Of a stretch of DNA of 64,000 nt, positions 45,643 to 51,019 are shown one piece after another. The stretch is from a virus (taxonomy: Duplodnaviria > Heunggongvirae > Uroviricota > Caudoviricetes), in IMG/VR virus record IMGVR_UViG_2802429175_000002. The stretch is one strand, 5' to 3'. Under the pieces are notes generated by a model. That model was given only the letters and a program-made list of their open reading frames with translations, ran no database searches and was not told where the DNA came from. Numbering within the stretch: the stretch's first letter is position 1; each line of letters begins with the position of its first letter. The position numbers were made by a program, and so were the translations under genes.

Positions 45643-45713
45643 ATGGGCGTGGTCCAAAGGCAGGACAACGGATTCCAAACCCGTTAGTGGGAGTTCGATT
45701 CTCTCCGCCCGTG
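45643..45713 (+). tRNA. tRNA-Trp (CCA)
   Basis: Acceptor ATGGGCG/CGCCCGT, D-stem GTCC/GGAC, anticodon loop TTCCAAA, T-arm GGGAG-TTCGATT-CTCTC. Hand-folded. Confidence 0.5.
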
Positions 45714-45731
45714 CAATGCCTATGTGTGGCA

Positions 45732-45770: not shown

Positions 45771-46161
45771 GGGGCTGACAGGCTTTCGATTGCGAGCCAA
45801 GTCACCAGAGAAGCGTGCCGGGATGCAACGCCCGTAACAGTGCAAACACAATAACTGCAGCTTCTGCTCAGTCCGACTACGCCCTAGCTGCGTAGTTCGG
45901 TGGGGTACAACGGTTCACCCGTTCCGTGTGCCAATCCACCGTCGCCAATACGGGGACCGTCGCTCGGTTGACTAACGGTAGCGGCATACAAATTGCCTTA
46001 GTTCACCCGCCGTGAGGTGTGTAGATCGGCTGTGTACCGTGCGGTATTCCCTTCGAGGGTTTGTCTCGCAGATCGCACGGAATACGAGAAGACTGCGAGC
46101 TACGCACGTAGAGGACTGTGACAAGTCACGTAAGACCCCGGTTCAATTCCGGGCAGCTCCA
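45771..46161 (+). ncRNA. ssrA: tmRNA (ssrA), tag peptide ANTITAASAQSDYALAA
   Basis: 5' GGGGCTGACAGGCTTTCGATTGCG pairs with 3' ...CCCGGTTCAATTCCGGGCAGCTCCA, giving a tRNA-like domain with a G3:U70 pair. The internal tag ORF (45842..45895) ends ...DYALAA-TAG. Confidence 0.7.
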
Positions 46162-46450
46162 CGAGGGGGAGATCCGGGTTCGAGTCCCGGCTGGGTAGCT
46201 AGCAGCTGGCCAGTAGTTCAAGGGCAGAACACCCTCGTTAAACGACGCGTGGCCCCGGCTCGCGATCGACGTCACCACGTCGCGGAAGCGTTTCGGTGGT
46301 GATCAGCCGATTCTACGGGGAATGTGGAGAGACATCTCCGCGCGGCCATGGGGATGCCTGTGGTCACATGGATGACAGGGTAATCCCGCAGTAGGTTCCG
46401 ATAAAAAGGATCCGACCTGAGGTGCCGTACCTGGGCCCTGTTGTCCATCA

Positions 46451-46888: not shown

Positions 46889-46965
46889 CTCGTCGCGAAT
46901 AGGCGATCAACGCAGACTGTAAATCTGTTCCTTCGGGTGTGCAGGTTCGACTCCTGACGGCGAGA
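46889..46965 (+). tRNA. tRNA-Tyr (GTA), tentative
   Basis: Anticodon arm GCAGA-CTGTAAA-TCTGT, acceptor CTCGTCG/CGGCGAG, T-loop TTCGACT. The D-arm is atypical. Confidence 0.35.
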
Positions 46966-47040
46966 CAACTTCGTTGGTTGGCCGGGGCAAATGTCAACTG
47001 GGTGGCGACCCGATCGGATGCATACGGTCAAACCGCTCTT

Positions 47041-47194: not shown

Positions 47195-47280
47195 GGAAGG
47201 CTCCGCTGAGTTGGTCGGCAACTGGCTTCGAAACCCAGGGGGCGCATCGTGTCGCAGGGGTTCGACTCCTCAGCTTTCCG
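47195..47280 (+). tRNA. tRNA-Ser (CGA), class II
   Basis: 86 nt. Anticodon loop TTCGAAA, long variable arm, T-loop TTCGACT, acceptor GGAAGGC/GCTTTCC. Confidence 0.45.
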
Positions 47281-47358
47281 CTCTAAGACTTCCACCTGCC
47301 TGAACGGTGGCTGAACAGGTGCACTGAAGATCGCGTCGGTGCTGAAATGGTGGACCAT

Positions 47359-47441
47359 GGAGAGCGCAACTAGTTAGGTGACTAGGCCTGGTTGCTAACC
47401 GGAGCGCTGTTCGCAGTAGGTTTCGAATACCTGCCTCTCCG
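47359..47441 (+). tRNA. tRNA-Ser (GCT), class II
   Basis: 83 nt. Anticodon loop TTGCTAA, variable arm GCG-CTGTT-CGC, T-loop TTCGAAT. Confidence 0.45.
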
Positions 47442-47968
47442 CGTTGCGGCGCTACCCCGCAGCCCTGAAAAGGGACTATGTGCTGTATAAGTGCACTGGG
47501 AAACCAGAGGTAGCACCCACACGAACTCTGTTGTGGGAGATATAGTTGAGACATTCGGGGCATGGCCCATAAGCCACCGCAAGGTGGTGAAAGGTGGGGT
47601 GACAACCCACCACCCGCAAGGGCAATCCATGCAATCCAATCCTCAAGCAGTCAGAGATGGCTGCCAGTGGTCGAGCTACGCGCAAGAGTCCAGGGCCGTG
47701 AACCGGTGGGACGCACCATCCCGTACGTGCGGGTGAAAGCGCTATTGGGCAAGCACACTGTGGAACGGAAGGAACTGAGTCCGAGCCTCGCAAGCAAGGG
47801 CGTGTTCCATGGAGACCATGGGTTGGGACGACGGTTCCATATCGGGTCAAAGAGTGTCGGTAGCCCAGCCAGGCCAAAGCACAAGAGGCGTGAAGCATTC
47901 TGTGCCCTAAAAGGGTTCGGAACTTCATGGGGAAGCACGTCTCTAGTCAAATCATTCTCCGCTGCGAG
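47442..47968 (+). ncRNA. candidate structured non-coding RNA (GNRA-tetraloop-rich) inside the tRNA array
   Basis: About 525 nt with no convincing ORF. It has multiple hairpins capped by GCAA/GCGA loops (CCACCGCAAGGTGG, CCCGCAAGGG, GTGGGGTGACAACCCAC). Confidence 0.35.
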
Positions 47969-48040
47969 AATGACGTAGACCAACGGAAGGTCACCAGTTA
48001 TTGGAAACTGGATGTGCGGGTTCGAGTCCCGTCGTCAATA
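47969..48040 (+). tRNA. atypical tRNA-like gene with an 8-nt anticodon loop
   Basis: Good acceptor, D-arm (GACC/GGTC) and T-arm (GCGGG-TTCGAGT-CCCGT). The anticodon stem CCAGT/ACTGG encloses TATTGGAA, which is 8 nt. Confidence 0.35.
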
Positions 48041-48334
48041 AAAAGCAAAAGTCCTTCCCCTGCCGAGGAGCAAAAGCGCCTTAATCCCAGACCCTCGGGA
48101 ATCTGGGCCGCACAATAGTCCCGCAAGGTGAGTGCGGTTTGTAGGCAAGTACTGCAGCAGTGAGACGGCCATCTCATCGCGAAGGGAAAGCCGCAGAGTA
48201 GCTTTCGGCATGACGAGTGGTTCACGGTAACGGACCAGGCGTGAGAACTAGGTCAGGGATGGCCTGGAGAAGCAGCGAATCAATAATGCTGCGAAAGGTT
48301 CTCGATAGCGGGTGTACTCTCAGCCTCTAACAAT
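48041..48334 (+). ncRNA. second candidate structured non-coding RNA in the tRNA array
   Basis: About 290 nt between tRNA genes, with several GNRA-capped hairpins (CCCGCAAGG, TCGCGAAGGG, CTGCGAAAGG) and no plausible ORF. Confidence 0.3.
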
Positions 48335-48408
48335 CGACTCTTAGCTCAGTTAGGTAAGAGCGACCGGTTGAAGCCCGGTGCGCCCCCGTTCGATTCGGGG
48401 AGAGTCGG
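48335..48408 (+). tRNA. tRNA-Phe (GAA)
   Basis: Perfect acceptor CGACTCT/AGAGTCG, D-arm GCTC...GAGC, anticodon arm ACCGG-TTGAAGC-CCGGT, T-arm CCCCG-TTCGATT-CGGGG. Confidence 0.7.
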
Positions 48409-48529
48409 CGTGTAAGGGAAACCAGGTTCCGCAGCTACTGGTGAAAAGCTGGGCACTCCACGTAAAAGGTCGCGTTGACTCGCGCGGATACGGTAGGCGA
48501 AGAACTGTCCTGCCGGAATGAGTCCTCAT

Positions 48530-48604
48530 GTCGGGGTAGAGAAGTTCGGCCATCTCGCTGTCCTCATAAGTCAGAGACCGTGGGTTCGAATCCCACCCCC
48601 GCCA
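48530..48604 (+). tRNA. tRNA-Met (CAT)
   Basis: Anticodon loop CTCATAA, T-arm GTGGG-TTCGAAT-CCCAC, D-stem GAGA/TCTC. Confidence 0.45.
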
Positions 48605-48663
48605 CGCAAAACCAGGGGCACCTGGTTGGGCCCGCCGCAGCCCAGCGCCAATGCGGCTCCAAT

Positions 48664-48738
48664 CCCGTTGTTGGGCAATGGAGCGCCCACCGCCCTACGA
48701 AGGCGCAACGCATGCAGGTTCGAATCCTGTCAACGGGT
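48664..48738 (+). tRNA. tRNA-Arg (ACG)
   Basis: Perfect acceptor CCCGTTG/CAACGGG, anticodon loop CTACGAA, T-loop TTCGAAT. Confidence 0.5.
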
Positions 48739-48802
48739 CTTAGCGCTGCCGGTACAAAGCCCGAAGAAACAGAGATGCCATGCTGCTCTGGCCAGCGCCA
48801 TA

Positions 48803-48873
48803 CCTTGTGTAGCTCAATGGAAGAGCCCCTCGCTGTGACCGAGGTTATCGCGGTTCAACTCCGCGCATAGGGA
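48803..48873 (+). tRNA. tRNA-His (GTG)
   Basis: D-arm TAGCTCAATGGAAGAGC, anticodon arm CCTCG-CTGTGAC-CGAGG, T-arm CGCGG-TTCAACT-CCGCG. Confidence 0.55.
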
Positions 48874-48897
48874 CGTACAGACACTGAAAGGCTTGAC

Positions 48898-49074
48898 ATG
48901 GTTGCAAAGCTGCGCGCGGGTATTGCCCACGCTGACATCGTCACTGCGGTAAACGCATTGATCGACGGCCTGGACGAGTTCCAGGATGTTCTCGACGATC
49001 TTCGCGAGAAGGTGGAGGAGAAGGTCGTAGCCAAGAAGGCACCGGCCAAGAAGGCAACTGCCGCCGCAGAGTAG
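48898..49074 (+). CDS. small hypothetical protein (58 aa) embedded in the tRNA array
   Basis: ATG with a GAAAGG ribosome-binding site. Product MVAKLRAGIAHADIVTAVNALIDGLDEFQDVLDDLREKVEEKVVAKKAPAKKATAAAE is helical with a Lys/Ala-rich tail. Below the ORF-track cutoff. Confidence 0.4.
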   Translation: MVAKLRAGIAHADIVTAVNALIDGLDEFQDVLDDLREKVEEKVVAKKAPAKKATAAAE

Positions 49075-49098
49075 CGGCCTCATCTATAATCGATAGAC

Positions 49099-49189
49099 GG
49101 TGTGTCTCTCGGCGAGAGGGCGGTTCGAGTCCGCAGCGTGAGGTTCTCACGTCATGGGCCCCTGGCAGGTTCGATTCCTGCGCACACCA
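49099..49189 (+). tRNA. atypical 91-nt tRNA-like gene (identity unresolved)
   Basis: 7-bp acceptor GGTGTGT/GCACACC with discriminator A, and a 3' T-arm GCAGG-TTCGATT-CCTGC. The interior holds a second TTCGAGT hairpin and extra hairpins. Preceded by a TATAAT box at 49085. Confidence 0.3.
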
Positions 49190-49194
49190 CCTAT

Positions 49195-49266
49195 GGCGAA
49201 GTGAGTGAGTGGCTAGCTGGCAGGCTGCAACCCTGACCCACGCCGGTTCGATCCCGGCCTTCGTCT
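49195..49266 (+). tRNA. tRNA-Cys (GCA)
   Basis: Acceptor GGCGAAG/CTTCGTC, anticodon loop CTGCAAC, T-arm GCCGG-TTCGATC-CCGGC. Confidence 0.45.
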
Positions 49267-49323
49267 CGACGCGCTCGGTGAGTAGGAGTCACCGTAAAGC
49301 CGACGCGGCAATATCGGCACTAA

Positions 49324-49398
49324 GCTCCAATAGCCCAACATGGCAGAGGCGACAGGCTTAGACCCTGTGCGGTGGGGGTTCGAATCCCTCTTGGAGTA
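49324..49398 (+). tRNA. class-I-shaped tRNA with Leu anticodon (TAG)
   Basis: Anticodon arm ACAGG-CTTAGAC-CCTGT, 5-nt variable loop, 3-bp D-stem with a 12-nt loop, discriminator A. Confidence 0.4.
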
Positions 49399-49465
49399 CG
49401 CATCCTGAGGCCGGTGGCAACTGGTAAGGGGATCCGCAGCCACAGCGGTCCCGCCTCAGGACTCT

Positions 49466-49540
49466 GGTCGGCTAGGCAAACCTGGCAAAGCCGCCGAGCT
49501 CAAACCTCGGTGTCTGCGAGTTCGATCCTCGCGCCGACTA
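49466..49540 (+). tRNA. class-I-shaped tRNA with Leu anticodon (CAA)
   Basis: All 75 nt are accounted for. Anticodon arm CCGAG-CTCAAAC-CTCGG, 5-nt variable loop TGTCT, T-arm GCGAG-TTCGATC-CTCGC, discriminator A. Confidence 0.45.
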
Positions 49541-49541
49541 C

Positions 49542-49613
49542 TGGGCGTTGGTGAAACGGCATCACCCTAGACTTTTAATCTACGAGTTGAGGGTTCAAAT
49601 CCCTTGCGCCCTA
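49542..49613 (+). tRNA. tRNA-Lys (TTT)
   Basis: D-stem GTGA/TCAC, anticodon loop CTTTTAA, T-arm GAGGG-TTCAAAT-CCCTT. Confidence 0.45.
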
Positions 49614-49614
49614 A

Positions 49615-49686
49615 GGGAGTATAGTTAAGCGGTTATAACTCTTGGCTCTTACCCATGAATCCCAGGTTCGACCCCTGGTGCTCCCA
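49615..49686 (+). tRNA. tRNA-Lys (CTT)
   Basis: Acceptor GGGAGTA/TGCTCCC, D-stem GTTA/TAAC, anticodon loop CTCTTAC, T-arm CCAGG-TTCGACC-CCTGG. Confidence 0.45.
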
Positions 49687-49687
49687 C

Positions 49688-49759
49688 TGGTTCGTCATCC
49701 AATGGTGAGGATACCGTTCTGATAAGACGGCAATCACAGTTCAATTCTGTGCGAACCTA
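49688..49759 (+). tRNA. tRNA-Ile (GAT)
   Basis: D-stem ATCC/GGAT, anticodon arm CCGTT-CTGATAA-GACGG, T-arm CACAG-TTCAATT-CTGTG. Confidence 0.5.
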
Positions 49760-49763
49760 CCAA

Positions 49764-49830
49764 GCGGTAGTTCCGGAAAGTGCGTGGCCTCCTAAGCCGC
49801 TGCAAGGGTGTTCGAGTCACCTCTACCGCT
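49764..49830 (+). tRNA. tRNA-Arg (CCT), short D-arm
   Basis: Perfect acceptor GCGGTAG/CTACCGC, anticodon arm GTGGC-CTCCTAA-GCCGC, T-loop TTCGAGT. Only 67 nt. Confidence 0.4.
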
Positions 49831-49833
49831 CCA

Positions 49834-49909
49834 AGCGAGTGTGATGTTTTAACGGTTTAGCATCCCTGTCTTCCAAACAGGTCGTGCCAGTTCGAATCTG
49901 GTCACTCGT
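49834..49909 (+). tRNA. tRNA-Gly (TCC)
   Basis: Anticodon arm CCTGT-CTTCCAA-ACAGG, T-arm GCCAG-TTCGAAT-CTGGT, acceptor GCGAGTG/CACTCGT. Confidence 0.45.
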
Positions 49910-50035
49910 TCGACGCCCTGAGATGGGCGACCCTCCAGTGGAGACTGCGGTTGTCGCTGGAAGTTTGGCGCGGATAGGGCATCCGCCAGGGACCTCTCGC
50001 TGCAGCATTGGCACCCTCAACCAAAAGCCCAATAT

Positions 50036-50103
50036 GCCTGGTTAGTCTGGGACGAAAGCTGGCTTACATCCAGCTAAGCGGGGTTCGATTCCTCGACTGG
50101 GTA
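50036..50103 (+). tRNA. tRNA-Val (TAC), reduced D-arm
   Basis: Anticodon arm GCTGG-CTTACAT-CCAGC, T-arm CGGGG-TTCGATT-CCTCG. Acceptor has G-U pairs. 68 nt. Confidence 0.4.
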
Positions 50104-50177
50104 CGTAGCGGGAAGGATCGGTTCGATACCGAGCCAGTTTCGGCTGGATAGTGTAGAGGAATGCACACCCGCGCCAG

Positions 50178-50251
50178 GCCTCATTAGCTCATCCGGCTAG
50201 AGCACTTCCTTAGTAACGAAGAGGCGCGGGGTTCGAGACCTCGATGAGGCC
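50178..50251 (+). tRNA. tRNA with AGT anticodon (Thr-like), tentative
   Basis: Perfect acceptor GCCTCAT/ATGAGGC, D-arm GCTC...GAGC, anticodon loop TTAGTAA, T-arm CGGGG-TTCGAGA-CCTCG. Confidence 0.4.
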
Positions 50252-50343
50252 CTATGTTCAGTCTGCGGCCATGTTCAGGAATCCTGAACAGCTACGTGGA
50301 TTGAACACAAGTTCAGACCCAGTCTTGTCAAAACGGGGACCAT

Positions 50344-50417
50344 GGGGGCGCATGTTCCAAGGTGGCGACCGATCCTTGCAAGATTGGTGTGGTCGCGTTC
50401 AATTCGCACCGTCTCCA
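50344..50417 (+). tRNA. tRNA-Ala (TGC)
   Basis: Anticodon arm CGATC-CTTGCAA-GATTG, acceptor GGGGGCG/CGTCTCC with a G3:U70 pair, discriminator A, T-loop TTCAATT. Confidence 0.4.
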
Positions 50418-50524
50418 CGGGAGTTTTGGCCAAGCAGCTCCAGGGTTTGATTCCCAGAAAGTTGGCTCAGGTTGTTCGTACCTGCCCCGGTGGCCTCGAA
50501 AACCACTGGGGGTAAACGTCCAAT

Positions 50525-50599: not shown

Positions 50600-50938
50600 G
50601 TGAGTAGAGAACGAGTACTGTCTGTAACCCTCGCGGATTGTCGTGTTGACACATTCCGGTCTGGGGGCAAGGGCGGTCAAAACCAGAACAAGCGCGAGAC
50701 AGGTGTGCGGATTACCCACGAACCGTCCGGTGCTGTGGGTGAGTCGCGCGAGGAGCGTAGCCAGCTGCAGAACAAGCAGGCTGCGTTCAAGCGTATGGCG
50801 AGCTCGCCCAAGTTCCAGCTATGGGTGAAACGTCAGGTGGGTCGCGAAGACCTACAGCGTGCCCAGGTAGAGCGTGATATGTGGCCGGTGAACCTCAAGA
50901 CTGAGGTCCGCGAATCCGGCAAGTGGGTTGAGCAATAA
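50600..50938 (+). CDS. arfB: ArfB-like peptidyl-tRNA hydrolase (release-factor GGQ domain)
   Basis: GTG start directly after tRNA-Asp. GGQ motif RSGGKGGQNQNKRETGVRITHEPSG with a basic C-terminal tail. Confidence 0.6.
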   Translation: MSRERVLSVTLADCRVDTFRSGGKGGQNQNKRETGVRITHEPSGAVGESREERSQLQNKQAAFKRMASSPKFQLWVKRQVGREDLQRAQVERDMWPVNLKTEVRESGKWVEQ

Positions 50939-50943
50939 CCCTA

Positions 50944-51014
50944 AGGTCCATTGGTGTAGTGAGAGCACACCACCCTCTCAAGGTGTTGGTGCGGGTTTGA
51001 TTCCCGCATGGACT
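50944..51014 (+). tRNA. tRNA-Glu (CTC)
   Basis: Acceptor GGTCCAT/ATGGACT, anticodon loop CTCTCAA, T-arm GCGGG-TTTGATT-CCCGC. Confidence 0.5.
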
Positions 51015-51019
51015 ACTCG

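Follow-up and report, generated by a model that had tools for sequence, protein, structure and literature searches.

Armless leucine tRNAs, a GOLLD RNA and an unannotated tRNA-like RNA in the predicted translation island of a Mycobacterium abscessus prophage

The virus record IMGVR_UViG_2802429175_000002 (IMG/VR; Caudoviricetes) provides a 64,000-nucleotide (nt) stretch of DNA, here called the window, with an array of transfer RNA (tRNA) genes, several of which a first-pass annotation had singled out as non-canonical in architecture. Sequence comparison identifies the region from 45.6 to 51.0 kb as the island of tRNA genes, transfer-messenger RNA (tmRNA) and GOLLD RNA of a cluster MabI (cluster M-like) Mycobacterium abscessus prophage. 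The closest relatives in megablast are prophiGD54-2, prophi86-1 and prophiT49-2 (87–91% identity, 74–81% query coverage), and the weaker matches of the stretch are cluster M mycobacteriophages. In Dedrick 2021 (PMC8092301) these prophages form cluster MabI, which has the organisation of cluster M, and the array is interpreted as translational reprogramming during lytic growth. The relatives' GenBank records give the same gene order as here: HNH endonuclease, Trp, tmRNA, about 20 tRNAs, an RF-1-domain protein, Glu and an RtcB ligase, the last annotated immediately downstream of the island in close relatives. Cluster M mycobacteriophages (Bongo, PegLeg, Rey) are reportedly the subject of a paper by Pope et al. 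from 2014.

With default settings ARAGORN finds 20 tRNA genes, all on the + strand, between 45643 and 51016; the relaxed setting (-ps85) adds Tyr(gta), Ser(cga), Ser(gct), Ala(tgc), Arg(cct) and a weak Ser(tga). As a test of tRNA character we used the Rfam RF00005 covariance model with its threshold of 29 bits. Among the unusual genes it was passed by Leu(tag) (52.7 bits), Leu(caa) (51.8), the tRNA-like module of GOLLD (49.3), Thr(agt) (45.1) and Val(tac) (31.7), and the 91-nt element and Arg(cct) gave no match at E ≤ 10. Each of the five oddities first described is present in the sequence, subject to the minor corrections given below, and the first interpretation holds in part. The possibility that the odd genes were mis-folds by eye is rejected because ARAGORN and Rfam reproduce the structures. 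tRNA-Leu(tag), tRNA-Leu(caa), tRNA-Thr(agt) and a 'tRNA-OTHER Gln|Pro(tg)' are already listed in the GenBank records of the relatives. Most of the odd tRNAs belong to an already annotated island, and only the 91-nt gene is unannotated. Three things overlooked in the first pass, namely the GOLLD RNA, the tmRNA and the prophage identity, account for most of the picture.

Both tRNA-Leu genes have the fold originally proposed for them, with a D stem of 3 base pairs (bp), its strands 12 nt apart, a variable loop of 5 nt and discriminator A73; positions 13/22 form a mismatch in the D stem of each. They had been described as Leu anticodons on class-I bodies. The long arm is indeed absent, but the body is not a foreign one: it is a Leu-specific body, with the D-arm signature of Leu tRNAs and A73, minus the variable arm. 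We aligned 14 Leu-anticodon tRNAs of 73–78 nt from six phage groups (alignment A4), taken from the window, its prophage relatives, Rey, Bongo, Nanosmite, the cluster V phage Wildcat, the Streptomyces phage Samy and two metagenomic phage contigs. Under a class-I cloverleaf whose D stem has 3 bp, pairing reaches 98.6% of the cells, both sides change in 17 of 20 pairs, and none of 500 shuffles did as well; in slid controls pairing collapses to 33–47%. U8, A14, A15, G18, G19, U33, A35, the last base of the variable loop (U48) and A73 are invariant. The hinge elements for leucyl-tRNA synthetase (LeuRS), A15 with U48, G18G19, A20a and the 3-bp D stem, all occur in invariant columns. A long variable arm (stem-loop >10 nt) is missing from both genes, which have a 5-nt loop, as do all 14 relatives but one. 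Discriminator A73 is found in 14/14 aligned sequences and in 119/120 viral sequences among the matches listed in the search described below.

According to Giegé and Eriani 2023 (PMC9976931), Escherichia coli LeuRS needs A73, A15-U48, G18G19 and A20a but neither the long arm nor the anticodon, and armless minimal tRNA-Leu variants are still active. In our pool of phage tRNAs a Leu D-arm signature composed of these elements matches 15 of 17 short Leu tRNAs, 7 of 8 long ones and 0 of 224 other tRNAs. Since the signature is common to short and long Leu tRNAs and occurs in none of the others, the short genes are best described as Leu bodies minus the arm, not as Leu anticodons grafted on another body. 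On this sequence evidence they are genuine Leu bodies without the long arm, and charging with leucine is predicted.

The short type is not peculiar to this locus. A search of IMG/VR with an IUPAC pattern found it in at least 120 contigs (GC content 28–69% among the matches listed). ARAGORN calls tRNA-Leu for 124 of the 124 matches listed, and a full 7-bp acceptor stem is present in 104 of the 120 distinct short Leu sequences among them; neither A73 nor acceptor pairing was fixed by the pattern. At least 21 viral loci among the matches listed carry both short and long Leu tRNAs. BLAST with one short Leu tRNA retrieved 224 cultured phages, where the matching genes are annotated as tRNA-Leu (for example, phiEa21-4 with 77 nt and P-RSM6 with 74 nt). 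Their hosts include Streptomyces, Erwinia, Salmonella, Pseudomonas, Bacillus, Vibrio and cyanobacteria, among others. By sequence, therefore, short tRNA-Leu appears as a common and widespread phage type. Leu and Ser tRNAs are held to bear the long arm everywhere except in animal mitochondria (PMC9976931), and our literature search for short phage tRNA-Leu found no paper noting a phage exception. It may be a hallmark of viruses at large that the variable arm of tRNA-Leu is lost, and the loss may serve defence evasion; this would contradict the textbook statement that only animal mitochondria are armless. As separate observations, G1.U72 closes the acceptor stem in 12 of the 14 aligned short Leu tRNAs and in 59 of the 120 from IMG/VR (among the matches listed); the same pair is seen in some of the long Leu tRNAs of phages and in several further tRNAs of the island. 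The metagenomic phage contig L014 (4176–4691) combines GOLLD, short and long Leu tRNAs and a double-T-loop RNA, and has two sub-threshold group I intron matches between tRNA genes.

The AGT anticodon reported for the gene starting at 50178 is confirmed by both ARAGORN and RF00005, which make it Thr(agt), with a C31/C39 mismatch in its anticodon stem. Every M, V or MabI array examined has Thr(agt), whose anticodon stems covary, and it makes up 8 of the 66 distinct Thr tRNAs in the pool, 7 of these 8 from M, V or MabI. It is the only Thr tRNA of the island, and the long open reading frames (ORFs) of the window use all four Thr codons (ACC 0.48, ACG 0.21, ACT 0.21, ACA 0.09); it would therefore read beyond ACU. 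We infer that A34 or I34 lets Thr(AGT) read several of the ACN codons. The annotation of prophiGD54-2 between 30 and 79 kb includes no deaminase. In Mycoplasma capricolum an unmodified A34 tRNA-Thr decodes in such a way.

Truncated D arms had been suspected near 49764 and 50036, and both are borne out. The first belongs to Arg(cct), which is recovered by relaxed ARAGORN only and missed by default ARAGORN and Rfam; in the window, two prophages, Nanosmite and Rey the D arm gives way to an invariant TTCCGGAAAGTGC and stem changes are compensated, and gene 114 of Nanosmite is annotated as tRNA-Arg(cct). The second is the 69-nt Val(tac), a borderline case just over the 29-bit threshold. The 69-nt form is shared with prophi86-1 only, and a canonical 74-nt Val occupies the site in prophiGD54-2 and prophiT49-2. 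Reduced D arms are thus found in Arg, Tyr and Val and are conserved in the lineage for Arg and Tyr.

The gene at 47969 had been credited with perfect acceptor, D and T arms and an 8-nt anticodon loop like that of a frameshift suppressor. It lies within a GOLLD RNA. The RF02032 model matches over its full length (positions 1–416) with 193.1 bits against a threshold of 150, and the location, in a prophage and adjoining tRNA genes, is the one expected of GOLLD. GOLLD is present in every cluster M relative examined and unannotated in the GenBank relatives. In the Rfam alignment the tRNA-like module is an insertion in an unpaired GOLLD linker, between model positions ~104 and 105; ARAGORN labels it 'tRNA-??? 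(tg)', which corresponds to the tRNA-OTHER entry of the relatives. Kretsch 2025 (PMC12286853) placed tRNAs in disordered GOLLD linkers and described another GOLLD member by cryo-electron microscopy as a homo-oligomeric nanocage, and Behra 2019 (PMC6582537) reported a pseudo-tRNA in mycobacterial GOLLD whose expression was not detectable.

The module is clearly tRNA-like, but its arms are not perfect: the acceptor stem has an A2/A71 mismatch and the T stem a G.U pair. An anticodon arm does surround TATTGGAA, and a 5-bp stem with an 8-nt loop can be drawn, but both ARAGORN and ViennaRNA favour 6 bp in the stem and 6 nt in the loop. The combination of U33, a four-base anticodon and a purine at 37 is absent, the loop UAUUGGAA having A at 33 in that register. 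Nor is the module a free-standing gene with an intact acceptor stem, given its site in the GOLLD linker and the A2/A71 mismatch. In the minimum-energy fold in context (ViennaRNA), its 5′ acceptor strand pairs with an upstream 8-bp hairpin instead. Because it lies inside GOLLD, has A at 33 and has a contested acceptor strand, the supposed 8-nt-loop tRNA is not a credible frameshift suppressor. At the same GOLLD site Rey has a different tRNA-like sequence: its loop is UUGGAAU (7 nt), its acceptor end has two A/A mismatches, its D loop lacks GG and its T loop is unusual; the Bongo linker contains a tRNA-like fragment only, and no tRNA was detected within the GOLLD of Nanosmite. The anticodon arm is identical in all four M. 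abscessus copies, and among 1205 distinct phage tRNAs odd-sized anticodon loops are confined to GOLLD modules. We regard the module, from its sequence context, as part of the GOLLD RNA and not as a free decoder. A neighbouring segment of about 200 nt (47752–47949), which overlaps the 5′ end of the GOLLD match, is ~80% conserved in some 25 cluster M phages, where it either lacks an annotation or is called 'hypothetical protein'; it probably belongs to the GOLLD RNA and is not a gene.

The 91-nt element was found as described in its length, its acceptor stem (7 bp), its T arm (5 bp) and its internal TTCGAGT hairpin, but the acceptor is not perfect, one pair being U.G. The TATAAT hexamer that had been noted as its own box is there, but a full −35/−10 promoter was not called. 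Its counterparts read TATCAT in prophiT49-2 and TAGCAT in the contig L010, and a TANNNT hexamer lies 7–8 nt upstream in three of four variants of the element. The arms comprise the acceptor stem, a D-like hairpin with a short loop, a T-loop-like hairpin (GCGG-UUCGAGU-CCGC), a variable hairpin, a 12-nt linker and the T arm, followed by A73.

The element lies within a 115-bp indel, which is present in the window and in prophiT49-2 (unannotated there) and absent from prophiGD54-2 and prophi86-1. An 83%-identical copy is found in prophiGD11-3 and prophiGD08-3 of cluster MabF, on the other strand and between lysin B and holin; MabF is listed with 0 tRNAs (PMC8092301). IMG/VR contributes one more copy each of the MabI and MabF types, an exact-core scan of this database giving two contigs only, and a plasmid scan for the RNA found nothing. 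All helices are kept in the two unrelated prophage clusters. The variable hairpin has three forms, all paired (CGUGAG/CUCACG, CGCGA/UCGCG and CGCGCAG/CUGCGCG), and the T stem changes between GCAGG/CCUGC and GCGGG/CCCGC. The element matches no Rfam family. The tRNA-Sec model (RF01852, threshold 47 bits) covers its whole length in an alignment of 20.4 bits, with a long D stem closed by a tiny loop, GCGG-UUCGAGU-CCGC in the position of the anticodon arm, a long extra arm and the T arm. Besides the low score, the loop UUCGAGU is not a UCA anticodon and the acceptor has 7 bp, not the 8 bp of tRNA-Sec; the 8/4 or 9/3 acceptor/T-stem layout of allo-tRNAs is likewise absent, the layout here being 7/5. 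The 'CGA anticodon' is probably just a copy of the T loop. Sequence and fold thus point to an unannotated, tRNA-Sec-shaped RNA that is not a canonical tRNA, with modest support from covariation.

We tentatively suggest, at well below even chances, that the 91-nt gene is the first of an undescribed class of phage tRNA-like RNAs. Such an RNA would combine a tRNA-Sec-like frame with a T-loop copy for an anticodon loop, move between MabI and MabF with its own −10 element and, instead of decoding, have the tRNA machinery as its target, for instance by serving as a decoy for toxins or enzymes that recognise the elbow, the T arm or the acceptor.

Several candidate folds and relatives of the RNA were discarded. 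A cloverleaf with the D stem CTCG/CGAG and a long closed arm was rejected, the hp1 hairpin being supported by differing sequences in prophiGD11-3 and the contigs L017 and L014, and the 'Ala(cgc)' fold of relaxed ARAGORN was rejected as poor. The double-T-loop pattern led in genomes to two unrelated Rhodopirellula repeats, and in metagenomes and IMG/VR to mixed RNAs with extra T-loop hairpins. With model R1, L014 alone rose above the tRNA background, at 42.9 bits, a score partly forced by the search pattern, and an acceptor-anchored scan returned only chance matches in coding DNA. A reading of the RNA as coding sequence, the antisense of the holin N-terminus of prophiGD11-3, was also rejected, the ORF start being apparently over-extended: from its annotated start, gene 76 ('holin'; L007 2174–2590) overlaps the 91-nt copy in antisense orientation, some 67 residues at the beginning look non-protein-like, and a later Met (MINQLRALN...) is likely the true start. 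Other phage tRNA islands (L021, L023 and L026 of IMG/VR; also L015/L022, L017/L020, L018, L024/L027, L025) contain RNAs of 100–145 nt with an acceptor-like stem and two or three T-arm-like hairpins. These have no Rfam match (L015–L018 and L020 tested), some are misread by ARAGORN as Ser(cga), and they are at most candidate homologues of the 91-nt RNA.

Table 1. Features of the island, with coordinates in the window
Feature	Coordinates	Strand	Evidence
tRNA-Trp(cca), first gene of the island	45643..45714	+	ARAGORN; Rfam 54.6 bits
Phage tmRNA	45771..46164	+	Rfam RF00023, 95.1 bits; annotated in relatives
tRNA-Tyr(gta), 78 nt, short variable hairpin, reduced D arm	46889..46966	+	relaxed ARAGORN only
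tRNA-Ser(cga), 87 nt, variable arm kept	47195..47281	+	relaxed ARAGORN; weak tRNA-Sec match, 26 bits
tRNA-Ser(gct), 84 nt	47359..47442	+	relaxed ARAGORN; orthologue annotated in Bongo
GOLLD RNA, conserved part covered by the Rfam model	47883..48326	+	RF02032, 193.1 bits, E=7e-53
tRNA-like module in GOLLD linker, anticodon arm CCAGT-TATTGGAA-ACTGG	47969..48040	+	RF00005, 49.3 bits
58-aa (amino acid) ORF inside the array	48898..49074	+	conserved in relatives; no Pfam match
TATAAT hexamer, 8 nt upstream of the 91-nt element	49085..49090	+	seen in sequence
91-nt tRNA-like RNA	49099..49189	+	fold and sequence comparison
Short tRNA-Leu(tag)	49324..49399	+	ARAGORN; RF00005, 52.7 bits
Short tRNA-Leu(caa)	49466..49541	+	ARAGORN; RF00005, 51.8 bits
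tRNA-Arg(cct), D arm replaced by invariant TTCCGGAAAGTGC, encodes CCA	49765..49832	+	relaxed ARAGORN; no Rfam match
tRNA-Val(tac), 69 nt, reduced D arm, three G.U pairs in acceptor stem	50036..50104	+	ARAGORN; 31.7 bits
tRNA-Thr(agt)	50178..50252	+	ARAGORN; RF00005, 45.1 bits
tRNA-Ala(tgc), G3.U70, non-canonical D arm	50344..50418	+	relaxed ARAGORN; annotated tRNA-Ala in prophiGD54-2 and prophiT49-2
Small RF-1-domain (GGQ) protein inside the array	50600..50938	+	Pfam PF00472, 68 bits; annotated in relatives
tRNA-Glu(ctc), last gene of the island	50945..51016	+	ARAGORN; Rfam

The features of the island are collected in Table 1. The counterpart of its Tyr(gta) gene is annotated as tRNA-Tyr in prophiT49-2, Rey and Bongo. 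The 58-aa ORF between His and the 91-nt element has a Lys/Ala-rich tail and is kept in all three prophage relatives. Immediately 3′ of the tmRNA, at 46134–46256, a second T-arm-like hairpin (GATCCGGGTTCGAGTCCCGG) coincides with weak Rfam matches to YrlA (Y RNA-like; 28.3 bits, E=0.006) and to mascRNA/permuted tmRNA. In some bacteria Y RNA-like RNAs accompany RtcB, for which the closest relatives have a gene just downstream of the island. The 73-nt spacer between Val and Thr (50105–50177) has a T-loop-like hairpin (CGGTTCGATACCG), and acceptor-stem-like pairing is possible between its ends (GCGGG...CCCGC-G-CCA), but with an unusual order of arms; the spacer is missing from prophiGD54-2 and prophiT49-2, in which Val abuts Thr. 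In prophiGD54-2, genes 55–56 (L165 8856–10090), a leftward 'nucleotidyltransferase' and a small ORF, are possibly a MenT/AbiE-like toxin module.

With the relaxed ARAGORN set the island covers all 20 amino acids. Each four-codon box has one tRNA, with U34, or with A34 for Arg and Thr, and codons without a phage tRNA are nearly unused (TTA 0.00, ATA 0.01, AGA 0.02 in 19 long ORFs, window 428–44065). We consider it probable that the locus is the translation island of a temperate cluster M-type (MabI) M. abscessus prophage with a streamlined, near-complete tRNA set, about one tRNA per codon box, whose members still resemble substrates of the host synthetases. The tmRNA, the RF-1-domain rescue factor and the tRNA set, with RtcB next to them in relatives, would form a self-sufficient minimal kit for decoding and repair in lytic growth, which is the published reading for cluster M and MabI (PMC8092301). 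Within such a set, the two Leu tRNAs would represent a phage lineage that dropped the long arm and kept the LeuRS elements A73, A15:U48, G18G19, A20a and the 3-bp D stem. Thr(AGT) would serve as the lineage's single Thr tRNA for several ACN codons, the 8-nt-loop tRNA would sit as a module in the flexible linker of GOLLD, and the 91-nt element an accessory, horizontally moving tRNA-like RNA. The trimming appears compatible with host synthetases, for Leu on the evidence of identity elements; for the other tRNAs we infer it.

A number of points weigh against this reading. The codon table was built on crude ORF calls, and Tyr, the three Ser tRNAs, Arg(cct) and Ala, needed for completeness, are found at relaxed thresholds only, Ser(tga) with a poor fold. 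The Leu D-arm signature was composed after inspecting the Leu sequences, and the IUPAC pattern fixed the 3′ half of the D arm, A35/R36, U48 and G53TTC, so that only the remaining features are independent tests. The 69-nt Val barely reaches the detection threshold, and thermodynamic folding does not give it a cloverleaf. Among the five 91-nt sequences double changes occur in just two pairs, which was equalled by 7 of 500 shuffles.

What selects for the departures from the canonical form is a further question, and one proposal is that they serve to escape host tRNA nucleases and toxins (VapC, MazF, MenT-type) while charging is kept. The missing variable arm, the reduced D arms, the altered anticodon loops and G1.U72 would all be read this way, with the 91-nt RNA and the GOLLD module as decoys or protected reservoirs. 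We hold this to be possible, with the odds against it; as a companion to the streamlined decoding set it is attractive, being compatible with it and supplying a selective reason. The island adjoins repair and rescue functions (tmRNA, the RF-1-domain protein and, downstream in relatives, RtcB). Mycobacteriophage tRNAs have been argued to dodge anticodon nucleases by loop changes (van den Berg 2023, PMC10264068), and Xu 2023 (PMC10435456), citing the cluster M paper, proposed that MenT toxins may target phage tRNAs. The occurrence of short Leu in very different phages, over the GC range given above for the matches listed, likewise suggests a general viral benefit. However, no nuclease that needs the Leu variable arm is known here, the Ser tRNAs of the same island retain their arms, and short and long Leu tRNAs stand together at the 21 or more loci mentioned above.

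Decay of the non-canonical genes fares less well. They would then be pseudo-tRNAs or recombination debris in an array shuffled by HNH endonucleases, with only the canonical genes at work, which we consider unlikely. The array does differ by gene-sized indels and swaps among close relatives, canonical Val replaces the 69-nt form in two of them, the GOLLD linker content varies from the full tRNA-like sequence of Rey through the fragment of Bongo to none detected in Nanosmite, the GOLLD pseudo-tRNA of Behra 2019 (PMC6582537) gave no detected expression, and lone T-arm-like hairpins stand in several spacers. Yet clusters M, V and MabI all retain Leu, Thr(agt), Arg(cct) and Tyr, whose changes are compensatory and whose identity elements are intact; these are the island's only genes for their codon boxes, and the 91-nt RNA retains every helix in two unrelated clusters. 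The suggestion of degenerate pseudo-tRNAs is accordingly rejected for Leu, Thr(agt) and Arg(cct), whose compensatory changes extend across cluster M, cluster V and other phages; it is kept for the 69-nt Val and the GOLLD module, for which decay is the main alternative. Recoding, with the 8-nt-loop tRNA as a +1 quadruplet suppressor and the short Leu tRNAs or the 91-nt RNA ('CGA') charged with a non-cognate amino acid, is very improbable: one fold of the module permits the 8-nt loop, the tRNA-Sec model puts UUCGAGU at the anticodon loop and irregular tRNAs with suppressor potential occur in phage clusters (Mukai 2017, PMC5389517), but the module has A, not U, at 33 in the four-base register, a favoured 6-nt loop, a place in GOLLD, a weak acceptor stem in competition with the upstream hairpin and a Rey homologue with a different, 7-nt loop, the short Leu tRNAs have the full Leu identity set, and any T-loop-like hairpin taken as an anticodon loop yields 'CGA', as ARAGORN did for L026.

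Overall, the odd tRNAs are not annotation noise but would make up the streamlined decoding set of a clinically relevant type of M. abscessus prophage. The value of the locus is mostly clarification. The supposed frameshift suppressor is a GOLLD module. Two points reach beyond the locus, the wide spread of armless tRNA-Leu and the 91-nt RNA. The former is common among phages with many different hosts and could serve as a simple marker of viruses and as a natural test of the rules of LeuRS recognition; the latter is an unannotated structured tRNA-like RNA common to two unrelated prophage clusters.

Set beside known systems, the island has its closest parallels in the arrays of cluster M (Bongo, PegLeg, Rey) and of the MabI prophages, with which it has in common short Leu, Thr(agt), short Tyr, Arg(cct) and GOLLD. 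It differs in being at most 91% identical to the deposited prophages, in the 91-nt element, otherwise found only in prophiT49-2 and one IMG/VR contig among MabI relatives, and in the 69-nt Val, otherwise in prophi86-1. The GOLLD RNA resembles those with a linker tRNA (Kretsch 2025, Behra 2019) in its strong model match, its prophage location beside tRNAs and the tRNA in the linker, whereas the module here has an anticodon loop of other than 7 nt and an extra upstream hairpin overlapping the 5′ acceptor strand. The 91-nt RNA resembles tRNA-Sec and allo-tRNAs (Mukai 2017) in its overall length of ~90 nt, its long extra arm and a D-like stem that is long and capped by a tiny loop, and departs from them in its 7/5 layout (rather than 8/5, 8/4 or 9/3), A73 and the 12-nt linker before the T arm. 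With bacterial class II tRNA-Leu the short Leu genes share the anticodons, A73, U8, the 3-bp D stem with 13/22 mismatch, A14 A15, G18 G19 Y20 A20a, A22 and a possible A15:U48 pair; unlike them they lack the long arm, having a 5-nt loop, and frequently have G1.U72. The nearest armless precedent in the review of Giegé and Eriani (PMC9976931) is the tRNA-Leu of animal mitochondria. Thr(agt) is like the A34 tRNA-Thr(AGU) of Mycoplasma capricolum in its AGU anticodon, its reduced tRNA set and its four-codon box, and unlike it in its host, a high-GC actinobacterium whose own Thr tRNAs are expected to have G, C or U34.

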